Below, piece by piece: positions 6,373-48,978 of a stretch of 64,000 bases of DNA. A program made the position numbers and the translations under genes. Origin of the DNA: a virus; the IMG/VR virus record IMGVR_UViG_3300035181_002522, positions 64,001 to 128,000 of that record, one strand, 5' to 3'. The notes beneath the pieces are model-generated. The model made no database searches and was not told the origin of the DNA. It saw only the letters and a list, made by a program, of their open reading frames with translations. How positions within the stretch are numbered: position 1 is the stretch's first letter; the number at the start of each line of letters is the position of its first letter.

Positions 6373-7584
6373 TTATTGGAAAGTTAAATTAGCAATATTA
6401 ACTCGTCCAAAATAGTCAGCTGAGTTACCTAACGATGTTGCAGTGTTGGTAAATGTAGCTTTCCCGTAACGAGTCATTAAGCTAACTTGTGGGTTGTAAG
6501 TAGTTGGATCGATGATTACGTTAGAGCTCATCAAAGGAACATATGGGCAATAGAAGTAACCGCTATCCATTTCACCATTACCACCTTTATAACCTAACAA
6601 GACTGGCTCTGAACCTTGGTCGTGGTAGATATAGGTGTAAATTTTGATAGAACCATTCAAAGTACCAATCAATTTGGTGTTGTTTGGACCTTCAAAAGAA
6701 CCACTAACTGCAGGTGCGAATACTGATTTTGAAGCAGATTGCAATACAGAAGCGATTTGAGGAGAAACAACTGCCCAATTAGCAGCGCCACGACGTGTTT
6801 TACGAGCGATTTCGTTTGCAACTTTGTTGATCAATACGCCAAGAACCGCGAAACGATCGCCAACATAGTTAGGAATACCAGTGAATGAGCCAGAAGCCAT
6901 GTCAAAGGTTTCAACTGTGCCAGCCAAACTAATCAAATCGTTAATGATTTCATTGTCAATCTCAGAAACGATCTCTGCAGAAAGAGCTGCAGTGATTTCA
7001 GCTTCCAAGTCTAAACCGTGCTGTGCAGATAAATCTTGCATAGCTTCAACAGTCCATTTAGCTTGTAACTTACGTGAACCAGCAGTAACGGTTTGTTTCA
7101 ATACTTCTAATTGCAATTGACGTCCGCCGTATGCCTCGAAATCAGAGGTAAGAGCAGCAAAACCGGTTGCAACGTTAGAACTATCTACACCACCAGAATA
7201 CCAACGTTTGGTTTTTGAGTTGTTTGAGAACACCTCGGTTGAACCACCAATGATATCTTCCGCACCAGCACCAGCAGGACTTACGTCTACGTTTTCAGAG
7301 AATAAGAAACGTAAAGAGTATGCCAAGCCAACTGGACCTTGCATTGGTTGAATACCAACAAGTTCAGTAGCAATTGTACCTGGAATGATACGACGAATCA
7401 TTGGGATAATGATTTTTTGGAAGTTACCAATTGCACCAGCTGCTGATACACCAGCTGCCGCGGTTTCCATCAAGTACTGTTTTTGGTTTTCCATCAAAGA
7501 AGCCATATAAGCTTTTTTGTTGGCAGGCAGTTCAGTCAAAAGTATTTCTTTTGTTTCTGCCCAGTTTTCAAATAAGTTTTCCAT
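6373..7584 (-). CDS. gp23: major capsid protein (T4 gp23-like)
   Basis: IPMIRR, GIQPMQGP, SRKLQAKWTVE..QDL..HGLD.EAE, FYCPYVPL, MTRYG. Confidence 0.96.
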   Translation of the reverse strand: MENLFENWAETKEILLTELPANKKAYMASLMENQKQYLMETAAAGVSAAGAIGNFQKIIIPMIRRIIPGTIATELVGIQPMQGPVGLAYSLRFLFSENVDVSPAGAGAEDIIGGSTEVFSNNSKTKRWYSGGVDSSNVATGFAALTSDFEAYGGRQLQLEVLKQTVTAGSRKLQAKWTVEAMQDLSAQHGLDLEAEITAALSAEIVSEIDNEIINDLISLAGTVETFDMASGSFTGIPNYVGDRFAVLGVLINKVANEIARKTRRGAANWAVVSPQIASVLQSASKSVFAPAVSGSFEGPNNTKLIGTLNGSIKIYTYIYHDQGSEPVLLGYKGGNGEMDSGYFYCPYVPLMSSNVIIDPTTYNPQVSLMTRYGKATFTNTATSLGNSADYFGRVNIANLTFQ

Positions 7585-10183: not shown

Positions 10184-11848
10184 TTATAAGCTCAGGTCAC
10201 CTGCTCCACCACCTGCTCCACCGCCGATGTCTAAATCACCACCAGCTCCAGGTTGTTCAGGTGGTAATCCTGAATCGCCACCTAAATCATCTTCTGGAGT
10301 AGCACCACTGCTCATATCACCTTTTTCAAGCTGCTTTGGCTTCATACTAACTGGCTTTCTTGCTTCCATTTGAATAGGGTCATAAATCTGTCTAATGTCC
10401 GTTAAAGTTGGAGTTGATTCAATACCAAGCTCTTCTTTCAGCATTTTCTCATTCATTTGCAAATCATCCTCAGAAAAGCCAAGATATTTTTTCAATTTTA
10501 AACGAGTTGAAATAACTTTGCTATCTTCGATTGACTTGAAGGTATTAATCAAATCAGTATCTAAAGCGTTTTGACGTTGAAGAGCAAATGACTGTGGCTC
10601 TGGTAAACGTAGAACAAACAGCCAATGTTCAACGTTGATGTTGATTGCTTTTAAATACTTTTTAAACTCTGCATCCATAATACATTCAACTTTGTTTTGC
10701 AACCTTCTGATATAGTTAGCAAAACGCAGCTCTTCTTGTAAAGCCATGCCAACTTTACCATTATTCATTACTGCTGGCTGCTGTTGATCGGACATCACAA
10801 AATAAGAAGATGGAATACGTAAACCATCTACGATTTTAGTTTTAAAGTATTTCAATTCTTCAAGTTCACCAAGGTTCTCACCACCAGGTAATACCTCAAT
10901 CCTAGATGAACGACCTGATGAAGTTACTGGTATGAAATAATCTTCTGAGATACTTGCAGGATTGTATGTTCCATCGATGGTATCTTTATCGTTTGAGGTG
11001 TTTGGGATACGCTTTTGGCGTAAATCATTCTTCACGCTTTCAAGATATATCTTCACACGTTGTTGAGCCATATTACCAACGTCAACATAAAATATTCGAC
11101 GTTCAGGGGCGCGAACGATACGATAGATGATGACAGAATCTTCAAGCATTGAAAGTTGTTTAAATACCCTAAAGATTGGCTGTAAGATTGATTCTCCAAA
11201 TGGAGCTGCTTCGCCCATATCGTCAGATAATGTAAAGTGAATGATAGATTCAGCAGGAACAATCTCAACATCAGTTTGTTTTGAACCAAAGCCTAAAGCA
11301 CCACCTCCATCACCTTTTAAGTGATAAGCGACTCGATTTCCATCAGGGTCAAGTTCGATACCAATAACTTTAGAAGCATCTAGGTATTCCCATTTTTTAG
11401 TATCTTTTTCTTTCTTAAAGAAACAGTCGCCATATTTACACATGATGCGTGAAATTCGAAAGATTCTGTTATTTAAATCTTGAATTCTACTCCACTGTCT
11501 TAAGGCCGCTCTTAAAGTTGTCACAATGGTTTCAGATATTTCTTCATCATCTTCCGTTTGATATTCAATCTCAAATGGTAAATTCGTTGTGTCATCGTCA
11601 TTTGAAATTTCTTCAGCGATAATGTCAAGTGCGCGCGAAATTAAAATGTCATTATCCATACTGTCGTATTGGATATAACGTTGCATCCTTGAGCCAGCAC
11701 CTTTTAATACCTGTGAGTACCAATTAATGGTACTCATTGCAGCCCCACCAGCTGAATTAAAATTTTCGCTATCAGTAGCTAATTTGTTATGATTAGTCTT
11801 TCTGGCTGATGGGGTAATAATTCTATAATAGCTTTGTAAAATTGCCAT
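10184..11848 (-). CDS. gp20: portal protein (gp20-like)
   Basis: QLSMLEDSVIIYRIVRAPERRIFYVDVGNM, EDYFIP, IEVLPGGENLGE, LRIPSSY. Confidence 0.96.
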   Translation of the reverse strand: MAILQSYYRIITPSARKTNHNKLATDSENFNSAGGAAMSTINWYSQVLKGAGSRMQRYIQYDSMDNDILISRALDIIAEEISNDDDTTNLPFEIEYQTEDDEEISETIVTTLRAALRQWSRIQDLNNRIFRISRIMCKYGDCFFKKEKDTKKWEYLDASKVIGIELDPDGNRVAYHLKGDGGGALGFGSKQTDVEIVPAESIIHFTLSDDMGEAAPFGESILQPIFRVFKQLSMLEDSVIIYRIVRAPERRIFYVDVGNMAQQRVKIYLESVKNDLRQKRIPNTSNDKDTIDGTYNPASISEDYFIPVTSSGRSSRIEVLPGGENLGELEELKYFKTKIVDGLRIPSSYFVMSDQQQPAVMNNGKVGMALQEELRFANYIRRLQNKVECIMDAEFKKYLKAININVEHWLFVLRLPEPQSFALQRQNALDTDLINTFKSIEDSKVISTRLKLKKYLGFSEDDLQMNEKMLKEELGIESTPTLTDIRQIYDPIQMEARKPVSMKPKQLEKGDMSSGATPEDDLGGDSGLPPEQPGAGGDLDIGGGAGGGAGDLSL

Positions 11849-39085: not shown

Positions 39086-39287
39086 AAAACCAGATGGTAA
39101 GTTAGTCTTTATAGTTGCTCTTATCGGCGGCGTAATAATTGCAGGTGCATCATATCAGGTCATTCATTCGTTTAAACCTAACCCTGACCCACAGTGTCTT
39201 GCGGCTTTAGTCGTAACATCAGATAATTGGTGGGAGCAATCGCCTGAACCAGAATGTACGCCAAACTTTGTTGATAATAAACACTGA
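39078..39287 (+). CDS. small membrane protein
   Basis: N-terminal TM segment. Confidence 0.5.
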   Translation: MAEKPDGKLVFIVALIGGVIIAGASYQVIHSFKPNPDPQCLAALVVTSDNWWEQSPEPECTPNFVDNKH

Positions 39288-39405
39288 CTTTGTAAGCTCA
39301 TGGGTAGAGCTCCCATACGAGGGTAGGAGTTGGTTCAATTCCAATGAAAGAATGGTTCCCGTAAATCCGCAATGGGGAGAGTAGGTTCGAATCCTACCAA
39401 AGTCA
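39286..39405 (+). ncRNA. tRNA-like RNA with ~55-nt structured insert replacing the anticodon loop
   Basis: acceptor GACTTTG/CAAAGTC, D arm GCTC..GAGC, T arm GTAGG-TTCGAAT-CCTAC; insert carries a second T-loop hairpin. Confidence 0.75.
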
Positions 39406-39427
39406 ACAATATTGAAGAGAAAGAAAT

Positions 39428-40924: not shown

Positions 40925-40978
40925 CATACAGTTTTACTTTTTATCATAAATACAAATTTAATAAAGTAAAACTGTATG
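40925..40978 (+). promoter_or_regulatory. start-codon-sequestering hairpin enclosing a late-promoter-like TAAATA
   Basis: 16-bp perfect stem CATACAGTTTTACTTT/AAAGTAAAACTGTATG that includes the HNH ATG. Confidence 0.75.
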
Positions 40979-41836
40979 GATTATCAGAAGCATTATTCCG
41001 CTCTTATTGAACGGGCCAAAAATAGAATTATTGATGGGTATACTGAACAACATCACATTATTCCAAATTGCTTTTTCAAAAACTCTTCTAGACGGAATAC
41101 AAAACATTCGTCATTTGCTGGTTGGTTAGATGGTAATCGGGATGATAAATCGAATTTAGTAAATTTGACACCAGAAGAACATTATGTTGCTCATCAATTA
41201 TTAGTTAAAATATATCCGAATAATTTAGCACTGTTATTTGCTGCTAATATGATGGGCAATACTAGAAAGGGAAATAAATGTTATGGTTGGTTAAAAAGAA
41301 AGCATTCTGATCGAATGAAAAATTTACCAATTGAAATTAGATTAAAAATTTCAAAAGCTTTAAAAGGAAGAAAAGTTTCACCAGAAACACGTCAAAAAAT
41401 TAGTAAATCTAAAAAGATCAATAATGCGATTAGAAAAAAATTGATATCAGAAGGCGTATTAGAAAAGCCTACACGCAAAACTTTCACACATTCTGAAGCC
41501 ACAAAACTTAAATTTTCTAAAAATGCTAAACAGTTACATCCAAATGGGCCCTTTTTTGGAAAAACTCATACTGAAGAAACAAAGCAAAAAATAAAACAAA
41601 GTAATACTAATTTTGTTCATACTGAAGAAACAAAAGCTTATCTTTCTGAAATTAGAAAAGGTGAAAATAACCCAATGTTTGGCTCTATTGGGACGATGGC
41701 AGGAAGAACAGGAAGTTCACACCCAGCGTTTGGATCAAAATGGTATGTTAATACTATTACTGGAGAAATTAAAAAATTTCGACCTGAAGAAATAAATACT
41801 TTGTGTATAACATGGAAACCAGGAAGAAAATTATGA
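40976..41836 (+). CDS. HNH homing endonuclease with NUMOD3 repeats
   Basis: EQHHIIP, NLVNLTPEEHYVAHQLL, repeated HTEETK, NPMFG. Confidence 0.9.
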   Translation: MDYQKHYSALIERAKNRIIDGYTEQHHIIPNCFFKNSSRRNTKHSSFAGWLDGNRDDKSNLVNLTPEEHYVAHQLLVKIYPNNLALLFAANMMGNTRKGNKCYGWLKRKHSDRMKNLPIEIRLKISKALKGRKVSPETRQKISKSKKINNAIRKKLISEGVLEKPTRKTFTHSEATKLKFSKNAKQLHPNGPFFGKTHTEETKQKIKQSNTNFVHTEETKAYLSEIRKGENNPMFGSIGTMAGRTGSSHPAFGSKWYVNTITGEIKKFRPEEINTLCITWKPGRKL

Positions 41837-44359: not shown

Positions 44360-44575
44360 ATGAGTGACAGTATTTTAATGATGTTTGCTATGTTGTTAGC
44401 AATTACTTTTATTGCTAACATTGTTTTTTGTATAATTGAGCTTCATAATCTATTGAAAGCCAAAGTTCAAAAAGCACGGTTGGAAGTCGATGAACTCTTA
44501 CATTGTAAAAATAGAGAATTGGGAAAAATATTCCTAACTTTTTGGGTCCGGTACGCGAATTGGTTCAGCGGGTAA
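44360..44575 (+). CDS. small membrane protein
   Basis: TM helix, GAGG RBS; 3' end overlaps the RNA gene at 44544. Confidence 0.45.
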   Translation: MSDSILMMFAMLLAITFIANIVFCIIELHNLLKAKVQKARLEVDELLHCKNRELGKIFLTFWVRYANWFSG

Positions 44576-44674
44576 AAACGTGGTTTGCATTTTTTGTCAG
44601 TAATGACCGCTCGTAAATCGTTATCGTGTCCGTAAAACACCTGTATGTGGGTTCGAGTCCCACCCGGCCCACCA
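44544..44674 (+). ncRNA. tRNA-like RNA (GTA loop, CCA end) carrying the conserved insert module
   Basis: acceptor, D arm, T arm and CCA present; ~52-nt insert between D arm and anticodon hairpin. Confidence 0.85.
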
Positions 44675-44680
44675 AATTAT

Positions 44681-44810
44681 GACACTATAGCTCAGTTGGT
44701 AGAGCACCTAAACATCGTTTTCAATTTTTTGCTAGAAATAGCCGACTAGAAAATGGTTATCGTCATTTGGAGACACTGTATGTGGGTTCGAGTCCCACCT
44801 GCCTTCTCAA
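44681..44810 (+). ncRNA. tRNA-like RNA carrying the conserved insert module (acceptor stem decayed)
   Basis: canonical D arm AGCTCAGTTGGTAGAGC, insert module, T arm identical to that of the preceding RNA. Confidence 0.75.
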
Positions 44811-44823
44811 CTTTATTAAGCAT

Positions 44824-45162
44824 ATGCTAATTACTGTTTTAAAATCAAAGCTACATCATGTTACCGTCACTGAAGCTGATATTAATTATGTTGGTTCATG
44901 TGCAATTGATGTAGAATTATTAGAAGCTGCTGAAATTCAAGAAAATGAGCAAATTCACATCTATAATGTGAATAATGGCGAACGTTTTACCACGTATGCC
45001 ATCGCTTCTGCAATTCCTGGAATTATCTCAGTTAGGGGTTCCGCCACTAGAAAAGTAGTGGTTGGAGATACCTTGATAATTACCGCTTTTGGCCAAATTA
45101 CCAAAGGCGAAATTTATAGACCAAATATCGTTTTTGTTAATAGTAAAAATCTCATAACATAA
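44824..45162 (+). CDS. panD: aspartate 1-decarboxylase
   Basis: LKSKLH..TVTEADINYVGS (Gly-Ser autocleavage site), NVNNGERFTTYAI. Confidence 0.93.
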   Translation: MLITVLKSKLHHVTVTEADINYVGSCAIDVELLEAAEIQENEQIHIYNVNNGERFTTYAIASAIPGIISVRGSATRKVVVGDTLIITAFGQITKGEIYRPNIVFVNSKNLIT

Positions 45163-45175
45163 AAGAGGAATAGAA

Positions 45176-45940
45176 ATGCCTAAACTACATGAAGTGCTCG
45201 CAGTTGAAAAAACTCGTGCAAATGCAGCAACAAAATTGCTCGACGAAACTGCAACAAAATTTCGTAAAGAACATTTTTTTGCTGGCCACATCAAAACTTT
45301 GAGAATGCTGGCTGATAGCCCTGCGAATGCTGCTATTGAAGCTGCATCTCGCGACGACAAAGCTTTGCCAACAACCGTTCCAGAAACTCTAGAATACGCT
45401 CTGAAATTCTGGGCAGATGCTGAAGACGTTACATTCGCAAAAAATCGCACAAATCAAATCGCTAATGCTGATCTTCTGTTTCATGGCGCCGTTTTAGTTC
45501 CTAATGTTCCGGTTGACGAGTTGCTCGGCCTGGAAGTTCGTTTGGAAAAGTTGCGTCATGTTATCGATGCAATGCCAATCTTGGATGCTTCTAGAGAGTG
45601 GTCTCTTTCAAGCTCTGGTCGTAAAGGCGAATATGTTTCAGTTACTTCCGAAGTAACCTCAAAAACTGAAAAAGTTTCTACTCCGGTTATCTTGTACGAA
45701 GCAACCGATCATCATCCCGCGCAAATCCAAGTTGTTAATACCGACAAAGTCGTTGGTACCTTTACCAAACTGTTAATCTCTGGTGCTGCATCTTCAAAAC
45801 AAAAAGCAGATGCGATTTCCACCATTGACGAATTGCTGGTAGAAGTAAAACAAGCACGTCAGCGTGCTAACAGCGTTGAAATCATCAACGAAAAAATCGG
45901 TTCAACCATCACCGATCTAATTTTGGCAGCGTTTAAATAA
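45176..45940 (+). CDS. conserved helical hypothetical protein next to the double tRNA-mimic RNA
   Basis: KLHEVLAVEK, LYEATDHHPAQ, VKQARQRAN; codon usage like highly expressed genes. Confidence 0.75.
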   Translation: MPKLHEVLAVEKTRANAATKLLDETATKFRKEHFFAGHIKTLRMLADSPANAAIEAASRDDKALPTTVPETLEYALKFWADAEDVTFAKNRTNQIANADLLFHGAVLVPNVPVDELLGLEVRLEKLRHVIDAMPILDASREWSLSSSGRKGEYVSVTSEVTSKTEKVSTPVILYEATDHHPAQIQVVNTDKVVGTFTKLLISGAASSKQKADAISTIDELLVEVKQARQRANSVEIINEKIGSTITDLILAAFK

Positions 45941-46161
45941 TGAAAGAGCTATCGTTACCGCAAGGAACTAAAATTCTCTGCGGTAACGGGCATTTAGTTG
46001 CTGTATTGAATAGGTCTCTTTATCGAGGAGACACTGATTACAGTGATGCTTTTGATTATGCTGAAGGTCAAATGCTTCCAACAAAAGGTCAATTATGTCC
46101 ACTTCATTGTCATTGTGGAAGTGTATGGCTTGACAAATTTAAATGCGTTAAAATTGAATAA
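45940..46161 (+). CDS. small Cys/His-rich protein
   Basis: CGNGH, CHCG; coupled to the upstream gene. Confidence 0.55.
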   Translation: MKELSLPQGTKILCGNGHLVAVLNRSLYRGDTDYSDAFDYAEGQMLPTKGQLCPLHCHCGSVWLDKFKCVKIE

Positions 46162-46199
46162 AACAGTTTCTTTTTGAATGCTATTGTGATAATATAGCT

Positions 46200-46615
46200 T
46201 CAAGTTAAAAGTTTGAGCCATCCTTATAATTATTTTTATTTTGAAATTGCGTTAAATTGCCTGCTGGTTCGAGTCCAGCTCCACATACAGAGAGCTTAAT
46301 AAGTTTTCTGTATGTGGATAGGAGAATTGGTATATCCCAAGATCTTTAAGAACTCATATGGAGTCGATCTTGTGTAATTTAAAGTGAGCCTTTTTAATCT
46401 TCGTATCGCTCAACATACGTAGACTAGAAGTAAAGTTTTAACAACAAATACGGTCTTCTCATTCATTAAATGAGAACTGGAAGTCGCGGGTTCAAATCCC
46501 GTCCCGACGGCAATTGATTTTAGAAATAGAGTTAATTGCCGTCGGGTAGCTCAGTGGTTAGAGTGCCAGTAAAATAACATCGTCATCATCGTAGGTTGTT
46601 TGATTAAAACTTGAA
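46200..46615 (+). ncRNA. structured RNA with two circularly permuted tRNA-like domains
   Basis: T arm -> closed acceptor hairpin -> D arm at 46263-46337 and 46476-46570, each within closing stems; TG-n-TAATAT upstream. Confidence 0.85.
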
Positions 46616-46629
46616 AGAATATCATTCTT

Positions 46630-46672
46630 AATGCCCGCCTAGAATATAGGAAATTTGGACTTTGCGGGCATT
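46630..46672 (+). terminator. hairpin downstream of the double tRNA-mimic RNA
   Basis: AATGCCCGC...GCGGGCATT. Confidence 0.4.
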
Positions 46673-46844
46673 CTATAAAAGAGCTTTTAACTGAAAGTTT
46701 TTTTATAGAATGATAACATTAAGGATATAATATGTCAATATTACGAATTGCTACAGCACTTATATAAGTGCTGTATGGTTTGATGGCATACATTTTTAAT
46801 ATTGACGTTAAGAAACAAGCTGAAAAAGAAGAGAAAAAATAATT

Positions 46845-46970
46845 GCCGGTATAGTTTAATGGTAGAACTGCCAAAAAACATCGTTTACATTTTTTGTTAG
46901 CAATAACCGCTAGTAAATGGTTATCCATTCCAAGGGGAAGATCGTGGTTCGATTCCACGTGCCGGCTCCA
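46845..46970 (+). ncRNA. tRNA-Gly(TCC)-like RNA (CCA end) carrying the conserved insert module
   Basis: acceptor GCCGGTA/TGCCGGC, U discriminator, loop ATTCCAA, insert module. Confidence 0.85.
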
Positions 46971-48071: not shown

Positions 48072-48303
48072 TAGTTTACAAATCGAGAGTTTATATTATA
48101 ATAACTCTCGTATTTTTATTATAAATGAAATTTTATTTGTATTAAATTGAAAATTTACTTAATAAAAATGAGAAAAACAGATAGTTAATAGCATATTTGT
48201 TAATAGTGAAAATACCTATAATTTAATGATAGATGGCATTTTAATAATTGTAAATTTAAAATGCAAATTTAAGGGATGTTGAAAATCTACTAAATAAAAT
48301 ATC

Positions 48304-48421
48304 GGGATAGTGACGGAATTGGTATACGTACAAGACTTTTTCAAGAACTTGAAACTATTCAAGTTCTTCTGAAAATCTTGCGGCTTCGGCCATGTGGGTT
48401 CGAGTCCCACCTATCCCACCA
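48304..48421 (+). tRNA. tRNA-Leu(TAA) interrupted by a 33-nt hairpin in the anticodon
   Basis: Leu-type D loop and long variable arm, CCA; removing 48339-48371 gives loop CT-TAA-AA. Confidence 0.85.
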
Positions 48422-48978
48422 AATTTATAATGCATTTACGACAAAACCAAACATTTTAGAGTTAATAAACTCTAACAGAGATCATTTACGTCAATTAGAA
48501 AAGTTTTCTATTGGCGTTTCTGTTGTTATAATTGTCAGTGAAGATGAATACACTCCATCTATTCGTACTGCTATTGGTCATGTTATCGGATTTGCTCCAG
48601 GTCGATTGACCATTGGAGATGACATTAGAGTAATTGTTCAAACTGCAGCTGGTAGTAAACGTTCAATAACTCCAGAAAATTTAATGTTGCTGAGTGAAAC
48701 ATGAACATTATTCCACAACCACCACTCACGAGAATAATTAGAGAAGGTAGCACTAGGTTTTGTCCTTTTTTGCGGAAGTAGCTTAGTGATAAATGTTCTT
48801 GGAAAATCACAAGGATGTTTATAACCAGAGTGTCATAACTTCCACCAATTGTCTGGTAGAGCAGTTGAGGCATTAAGTACTATTGAACAAGTTAAGCAGA
48901 TTAAAGCAGATTATGATGTTAGTCTTAATGAAGCTAAGCGTATTTTTGCATGCCTTATTGAATATGTTGTTCAGAAAT

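Follow-up and report, generated by a model that had tools for sequence, protein, structure and literature searches.

A 33-nt hairpin insert between U34 and A35 of a tRNA-Leu(UAA) gene in a T4-like jumbo phage

An interrupted class II tRNA-Leu gene

The stretch of DNA analysed here (the window, 64,000 nucleotides) corresponds to bases 64001–128000 of one 164,331-bp viral record of 35.6% G+C, whose source phage, hereafter G000, is an uncultured T4-like jumbo phage recovered from samples of sediment and microbial mat. G000 is identified as T4-type by its major capsid protein, gp23 (6373–7584), and its portal, gp20 (10184–11848), and CheckV puts the completeness of the record at 46%. At 48304–48421, on the plus strand, lies a class II tRNA-Leu gene whose anticodon loop is split by a 33-nt insert (Table 1). 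An earlier note on this DNA had described a tRNA-Leu(UAA) with a hairpin-bearing insert at 48339–48371, and the sequence, Rfam, ARAGORN with introns allowed and the predicted fold all agree with that description. The Rfam tRNA model (RF00005) scores the gene at 45.9 bits (gathering score, 29), and its alignment puts 36 bases into the anticodon loop; ARAGORN with introns on reports Leu(UAA), as tRNA-Leu(taa), with a 33-nt intron, and with introns off makes no call for the gene. The tRNA body is a standard class II Leu cloverleaf, intact as the note had it, with a long variable arm, A73, a leucine anticodon and a 3-bp D stem with G18G19. In place of seven contiguous nucleotides, the anticodon loop has 40, of which 33 lie between U34 and A35.

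Excision of 48339–48371 leaves the anticodon UAA in a loop reading CUUAAAA, which is the CU-UAA-AA loop foreseen in the note and the same as that of the uninterrupted tRNA-Leu(UAA) (L003:11945–12030) of a related phage, G001, whose protein identity to G000 is 74% in one neighbouring gene. We fixed the boundary of the insert by the requirement for a leucine anticodon; cutting elsewhere would yield GAA (Phe), UUA (an ochre suppressor) or UUU (Lys). Blastn against cultured phages finds a 3′ exon resembling the tRNA-Leu of T4-like Aeromonas phages, and the insert is absent from the cultured-phage records. T4 itself carries a tRNA-Leu(UAA). The interrupted gene is the sole tRNA-Leu gene in the 164-kb record, where UUA accounts for 44% of leucine codons (36.8 per 1000) and UUA plus UUG for 64%.

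A predicted sigma-70-like promoter lies ~200 nt 5′ of the gene. No relatives of the open reading frame (ORF) upstream of the tRNA turned up among viral contigs, and no RNA-enzyme family is represented in the flanking ORFs. Directly 3′ of the tRNA is a 93-codon open frame (48423–48704, plus strand) that matches no family and lacks an ATG, GTG or TTG start 3′ of the tRNA; ATT may serve as its start, unless the frame is no gene at all.

Table 1. Features of the interrupted tRNA-Leu gene and its surroundings (window coordinates)
Feature	Position	Strand	Details
Predicted sigma-70-like promoter	48075–48102	+	TTTACA, 16-nt spacer, TATAAT; 11/12 matches; consensus scan
5′ exon	48304–48338	+	acceptor 5′ strand, D arm, CAAGA, C32 U33 U34; Rfam, ARAGORN with introns, fold
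Acceptor stem	48304–48310 with 48411–48417	+	7 bp
Anticodon stem	48331–35 / 48376–80	+	CAAGA / UCUUG
Split loop	48336–38, 48339–48371, 48372–75	+	CUU, 33 nt, AAAA
Intervening sequence	48339–48371	+	33 nt; 5′ linker UUUC, 11-bp hairpin, 3′ linker CUG
Hairpin	48343–48368	+	11-bp perfect stem AAGAACUUGAA/UUCAAGUUCUU, loop ACUA; unique in the window
3′ exon	48372–48421	+	A35 A36 A37 A38, UCUUG, 13-nt variable arm, T arm, acceptor 3′ strand, A73, CCA
Variable arm	48381–93	+	13 nt, GGC/GCC stem
T arm	48394–48410	+	stem GUGGG/CCCAC, loop UUCGAGU
A73 and encoded CCA	48418–48421	+	
R2K-clade ATP-grasp remnant	49953–50525	+	between tRNA-Leu and tRNA-Pro; PF14243/PF18299 in relatives

The whole RNA is predicted to fold as a cloverleaf with a lengthened anticodon arm (−43.2 kcal/mol, z = −5.0), a stability matched by none of 200 shuffled sequences. 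In the MFE fold this arm comprises ~21 rungs: 5 bp, a CU bulge on the 5′ strand beside the stem, 6 bp, a UC bulge further out on the 3′ strand, 10 bp and the ACUA loop. Perfect hairpins of at least 11 bp with loops of 3–8 nt number ~20 in the 164-kb record, against 0–2 in Markov simulations, and it is very unlikely that such a hairpin would hit an anticodon loop exactly by chance. Four DNA runs contain the phage, as independent assemblies from sediment and microbial mats; their main contigs agree in every base of the insert, and none of these contigs shows an insert-free allele. One short contig (151 nt, low depth), whose CUUAAAA loop is uninterrupted, was assigned to the tRNA-Leu of another organism. 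We also considered and rejected the insert as an intrinsic terminator and as a repeated element, the hairpin being single-copy in the window.

Hairpin inserts in the tRNAs of related phages

The earlier note had proposed looking for the same insertion site in other phages, and two such genes were found, both in a distant phage, G002 (L005, 257 kb; the same phage is also present as a 342-kb metagenome contig, L029). G002 was located with a pattern built on the tRNA-Leu context alone, which matches L005 only among viral contigs and G002 again among metagenome contigs. Its tRNA-Leu(UAA) (L005:7014–7129) carries, exactly where the G000 gene is split, a homologous insert of 32 nt; the two inserts share the ends UUUCAAG and GUUCUUCU, differ in the distal stem and loop, and are 64% identical over the insert. 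Over the exons, the G000 gene is closer to this interrupted G002 gene (81% identity) than to the uninterrupted G001 gene (73%). A tRNA-Leu(UAG) of the same phage (L005:3512–3627) has a paralogous 32-nt insert after U34, whose distal stem AUCUGC/GCGGGU matches that of its Leu(UAA) sibling. These two genes are the only over-long matches among 52 tRNA-model matches in G002, and only one ORF is common to G000 and the 15 kb around the G002 tRNAs.

Aligned across the three Leu inserts, the hairpin has 10 shared rungs, whose 30 cells are without exception standard pairs; rungs 1, 4, 7 and 10 have changed on both sides. The G002 copies contain five G–U pairs, which on the opposite strand would be A–C mismatches, and these pairs point to selection on the RNA of the tRNA strand. 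Between G000 and G002 the tRNA body, too, has seven stem pairs altered on both sides with the cloverleaf retained. Compensatory changes at seven body pairs, together with a homologous insert in a distant phage, argue that the interrupted gene is kept under selection as a tRNA. Judged on these patterns of substitution, the insert is a maintained structured RNA element within a maintained tRNA, and neither chance nor recent damage.

The same comparison weighs on the idea that the gene is dead or dying, its anticodon loop having been hit by a functionless local duplication or by the insertion of a small, equally functionless palindromic element. Two features would suit this: the inner stem CAAGA/UCUUC nearly copies the anticodon stem CAAGA/UCUUG, and the flanks CUU...CUG (CUU...CUU in G002) resemble a 3-bp target duplication. 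We nevertheless consider it very improbable, since the insert is kept in two distant phages, compensatory changes extend through the hairpin and every stem of the tRNA body, the G–U pairs indicate selection at the RNA level and the sequence is identical in four samples; no further copy of the hairpin was found in the window, nor any outside tRNA in the scanned collections.

The split loop gives a leucine anticodon on a class II Leu body in each of the three Leu genes (UAA, UAA and UAG), and each time the C32–U33/purine-37 frame is canonical. The flanking triplets, CUU/CUK, differ at a single base, which is intronic under the U34/A35 model. Uninterrupted tRNAs bearing the anticodons UAA and UAG are present in G002 as well. 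Adjoining its insert-bearing class II Leu genes are four class I-like tRNAs with leucine anticodons (L005:2773–3505; UAA, CAA, UAG and CAA), which have Leu-like D loops and short class I variable loops.

Further relatives were found via the portal protein and then scanned for tRNAs. One of them, the complete phage G008 (306,759 bp), has two tRNAs with hairpin inserts of 26 and 28 nt; in G001 the tRNA-Pro carries a 28-nt hairpin, the tRNA-Pro of the window (50767–50840) being whole; and the tRNA scan found no simple hairpin inserts in G003 and G010. For each of the six interrupted tRNAs the predicted fold is a cloverleaf in which the anticodon arm forms a long helix. For the 26–28-nt hairpins in these relatives the orthologous tRNA is uninterrupted elsewhere, and a patchy distribution of this kind is typical of introns. 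In G008, the tRNA with the 28-nt insert (L111 region, G008:C1:141017–141257) adjoins a tRNA-like gene whose 51-nt insert holds a T-arm-like hairpin of its own, so that two styles of insert stand side by side.

The exact exon pattern has no match in viral contigs; the insert-end patterns recover L005 plus 23 chance coding matches in viral contigs, and 11 chance matches, none in a tRNA, in prokaryote genomes. With a 3′-end pattern we recovered a Leu(CAA) that has no interruption, together with an unusual tRNA-like RNA; a variable-arm/T-arm pattern gave, besides L005, one further uninterrupted Leu(CAA).

Comparison with known splicing systems and candidate enzymes

The note had placed the insert at the classic group I intron site, and this placement stands: the split loop matches the form CUU/a...g/AAAA in which the tRNA-Leu group I intron of Nostoc is written (Williams 2020, 10.1101/2020.01.27.920355). 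The G000 insert shares with the cyanobacterial/plastid tRNA-Leu(UAA) intron the same tRNA, the same loop and the same U34/A35 site, but that intron is self-splicing, at least 200 nt long and equipped with a conserved core and an omega-G, whereas the insert is 33 nt long and has no core. Thirty-three nucleotides cannot hold a group I core, and Rfam finds no ribozyme in the insert, in keeping with the note's view that it is too small to splice itself. The further suggestion of a free group I ribozyme in the genome found no support, RF00028 giving no match in 48200–48520 (E up to 10) or across the 164-kb record (E up to 1). As for the final G of the insert, to which the note had drawn attention, it is true of the G000 copy and is not conserved: the last base is U at L005:7014–7129 and C at L005:3512–3627, and no alternative boundary ending in G is available in either G002 insert. 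The insert end is therefore not an omega-G.

These results make it highly improbable that the insert is the decayed remnant of a group I intron at its classical site, either trans-spliced by a ribozyme encoded elsewhere or left unspliced. Such a remnant would explain the CUU/.../AAAA site and loop, as in the cyanobacterial intron, the U before the 5′ site and the terminal G in G000; it sits poorly with the missing core in both insert and record, with the loss of that G in the homologues and with a conserved feature that is a simple hairpin, not a P1/P10 arrangement.

Archaeal and eukaryal tRNA introns form a bulge–helix–bulge (BHB), are cut by a splicing endonuclease and joined by a ligase, and lie at 37/38 (review PMC4090602). 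They resemble the G000 insert in being short and in pairing with the anticodon loop, and a similar cut-then-ligate logic is proposed here for G000. In a BHB each strand has one 3-nt bulge, a 4-bp helix separates the two, and cutting takes place within the bulges; in the MFE fold of the G000 RNA the bulges are 2 nt, stand 6 bp apart with reversed handedness, and the cuts would fall within helix, at position 34/35. On bulge size, side and spacing we rejected a BHB identity for the insert.

A published parallel to the insert is found among the ‘enigmatic’ tRNA introns of Lak megaphages, which are non-group-I, lie in the anticodon loop, and are conserved and patchy (Devoto et al. 2019, PMC6784885, Table S6). 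The G000 insert is likewise a non-ribozyme element in the anticodon loop of a large-phage tRNA and is conserved between phages. It differs from the one Lak intron that we examined, which is 93 nt long, lies at 37/38 and has a tRNA-like T arm, in being a plain 33-nt hairpin at 34/35; and its phage is T4-like, from sediment and microbial mat. Beyond Devoto 2019, the literature searched holds no description of hairpin introns in phage tRNAs.

Among the enzymes that could act on such an RNA, G000 encodes a T4-type RNA ligase 1 (Rnl1, G000:C1:2244–3368; PF09511 plus T4_Rnl1_C). In T4 the T4_Rnl1_C domain directs the ligase to broken anticodon loops, in a repair pathway in which PrrC cuts the loop, and Pnkp and Rnl1 heal and seal it. 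The ligase with its tRNA-specific C-terminal domain is thus common to both phages, and sealing a broken anticodon loop is its job in T4; but the T4 pathway mends a single, host-inflicted nick in tRNA-Lys, whereas G000 would need two cuts and the removal of 33 nt. Rnl1 is present in G002 and also in the insert-free G003 and G010, so that it is compatible with splicing without being diagnostic; the insert-bearing G008 has no Rnl1 and has Rnl2-family genes instead. The search that the note had called for, covering an RNA ligase or an endonuclease, yielded the ligase and no endonuclease candidate. In the 46%-complete G000 record we found no candidate endonuclease and no Pnkp, Rnl2, RtcB, RNase III (PF14622), PNK3P or AAA_33, and the splicing endonuclease tRNA_int_endo (PF01974) is absent from G000 (at that same completeness), G001 and G002.

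When the G000 ORFs were profiled across five phages, three insert-bearing (G001, G002 and G008) and two insert-free (G003 and G010), the sole ORF matching exactly the former three was an R2K ATP-grasp gene. Its homologues in G001, G002 and G008 are intact, and the G000 copy is a remnant shortened by ~135 residues at the N terminus, with an in-frame TAA (50052–50054) at the place of a lysine in the G001 homologue; truncated and interrupted in this way, it was rejected as an explanation. Other genes common to G000 and G002 encode a topoisomerase, DUF7483/SPRY, a GIY-YIG fragment, DHFR, a PAS-GGDEF protein and AAA_28. The PAS-GGDEF protein, a putative diguanylate cyclase encoded just past the window end (L194:32–931 = G000:C1:128631–129530), scores 143.5 bits for GGDEF and is 37% identical to its G002 counterpart. 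The tRNA region of the window also holds a NUMOD3 homing endonuclease (phrog_655) and a PanD aspartate decarboxylase (132 bits), at 40976–41836 and 44767–45162.

An endonuclease might instead come from the host: RNase III could excise the hairpin, leaving 5′-phosphate/3′-OH ends that the phage ligase reseals. The 10–11-bp stem with its tetraloop is the size of minimal RNase III substrates, exactly these ends are required by Rnl1, and the 46%-complete G000 record contains no PNK. Two relatives would also fit: the G008 insert of L111, with the tRNA read as Trp(CCA), would be released as an 11-bp hairpin with a 2-nt GG 3′ overhang, and that of the G001 tRNA-Pro, with G37 kept, would have a 2-nt CC 3′ overhang. 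The Leu inserts do not follow. Because the first bases of the intron pair with the 3′ exon, cuts at U34/A35 would leave a 5′ overhang of 1–3 nt in either register and not the 2-nt 3′ overhang; conversely, a 2-nt 3′ stagger in the gap-free register would leave 2a−2 loop bases, never 7, and the MFE register fails likewise, as do both G002 Leu inserts. We judge this route very improbable for the Leu gene, and the contrast with G008 L111 and G001 tRNA-Pro, which fit the RNase III register, indicates that the hairpin inserts are not a uniform class.

Spliced tRNA or anticodon-masked mimic

What we describe is a short hairpin at 34/35, in a register other than that of RNase III, within a barely described set of non-ribozyme introns of large-phage tRNAs. 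Textbooks describe the tRNA introns of bacteria as group I ribozymes that splice themselves, and assign the protein-catalysed splicing of tRNAs to archaea and eukaryotes. The G000 insert is not self-splicing, yet it interrupts the tRNA for the phage's most-used leucine codon.

We tentatively propose that it is a protein-spliced mini-intron of a functional class II tRNA-Leu(UAA). In the primary transcript the insert would stack on the anticodon stem, giving a helix of ~21 rungs that buries the anticodon. An endonuclease of phage or host origin would then cut after U34 and before A35, and an ATP-dependent RNA ligase, for which the phage Rnl1 is the obvious candidate, would reseal the loop. The product would be an 85-nt tRNA reading UUA/UUG, the commonest leucine codons of the phage. 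That the tRNA-Leu is transcribed, cleaved, ligated and used in decoding we infer from the features that favour this reading, namely the G001-like loop, the G002 homologues, the leucine anticodons, the patchiness of the inserts, the UUA usage and the presence of Rnl1.

Several observations count against it. The 46%-complete record yielded no endonuclease candidate, the ligase does not track the inserts, and the geometry misfits both RNase III and BHB; we know of no protein-dependent tRNA splicing in bacteria or phages. The intron ends differ among the three Leu inserts, and, as UUU and AAAA pair together, these conserved loop bases could be kept for structure. The uninterrupted tRNAs with UAA and UAG anticodons in G002 likewise speak against a spliced product.

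More generally, and with somewhat greater reserve, phages or their hosts may possess protein-dependent tRNA splicing, in which a structure-guided endonuclease excises hairpin introns and an Rnl1- or Rnl2-type ligase reseals the loop. Phage repair ligases would on that account have a housekeeping role, and the stagger at Leu(UAA) would be unlike that of RNase III or of the archaeal endonuclease.

The insert may, on the other hand, never be removed, the 118-nt RNA being a tRNA look-alike with a permanently buried anticodon; it could then serve as decoy, sponge or regulator, anticodon nucleases being one possible target. E. coli LeuRS ignores the anticodon, so the 118-nt RNA could be charged or could bind tRNA-handling proteins; this property of LeuRS, and the wealth of tRNA-scaffold RNAs in G000, keep a mimic a serious rival. 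It would be in line with the other tRNA-shaped RNAs of G000 with rebuilt anticodon arms (39285–39407, 44574–46970), with the long, stable anticodon-arm helix predicted for every known insert of this type, with the want of any fitting excision geometry or enzyme and with the same anticodons being available on uninterrupted tRNAs in G002. We still think it unlikely, given that the C32–U33/purine-37 frame and a leucine anticodon are kept in 3/3 Leu cases, and that UUA is the top leucine codon in a 164-kb record with no other Leu tRNA. Nor does the hairpin resemble the Ro60-type module common to the neighbouring tRNA-like genes: Rfam gives no match of the insert to Y RNA or YrlA (RF00019/RF02553) at E up to 10, and we rejected a role as Ro60 partner because its perfect AU-rich stem is unlike the module of the tRNA-like genes at 44574–46970.

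If the protein-spliced reading is right and the insert is removed, an endonuclease-plus-ligase route would be new to bacteria or phages, and the function of T4-type RNA ligases would extend past repair; an insert that stays in place would be a new way to make an anticodon-silent tRNA mimic. Standard tRNA finders miss such genes, with the consequence that phage tRNA repertoires and analyses of codon supply are undercounted.

Two other over-long tRNA-model matches in the window (39285–39407 and 46845–46970; 38–41 bits) differ in kind from the Leu hairpin: a T-arm-like hairpin is nested within the anticodon region of one, and the other contains a ~52-nt module common to the genes at 44574–44780. 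An unrelated viral contig contains an 80-nt tRNA-like gene (L001:3123–3203) that shares its acceptor stem, T arm and CCA with the G000 tRNA-Leu and has an aberrant middle, in which no D or anticodon arm is recognisable.
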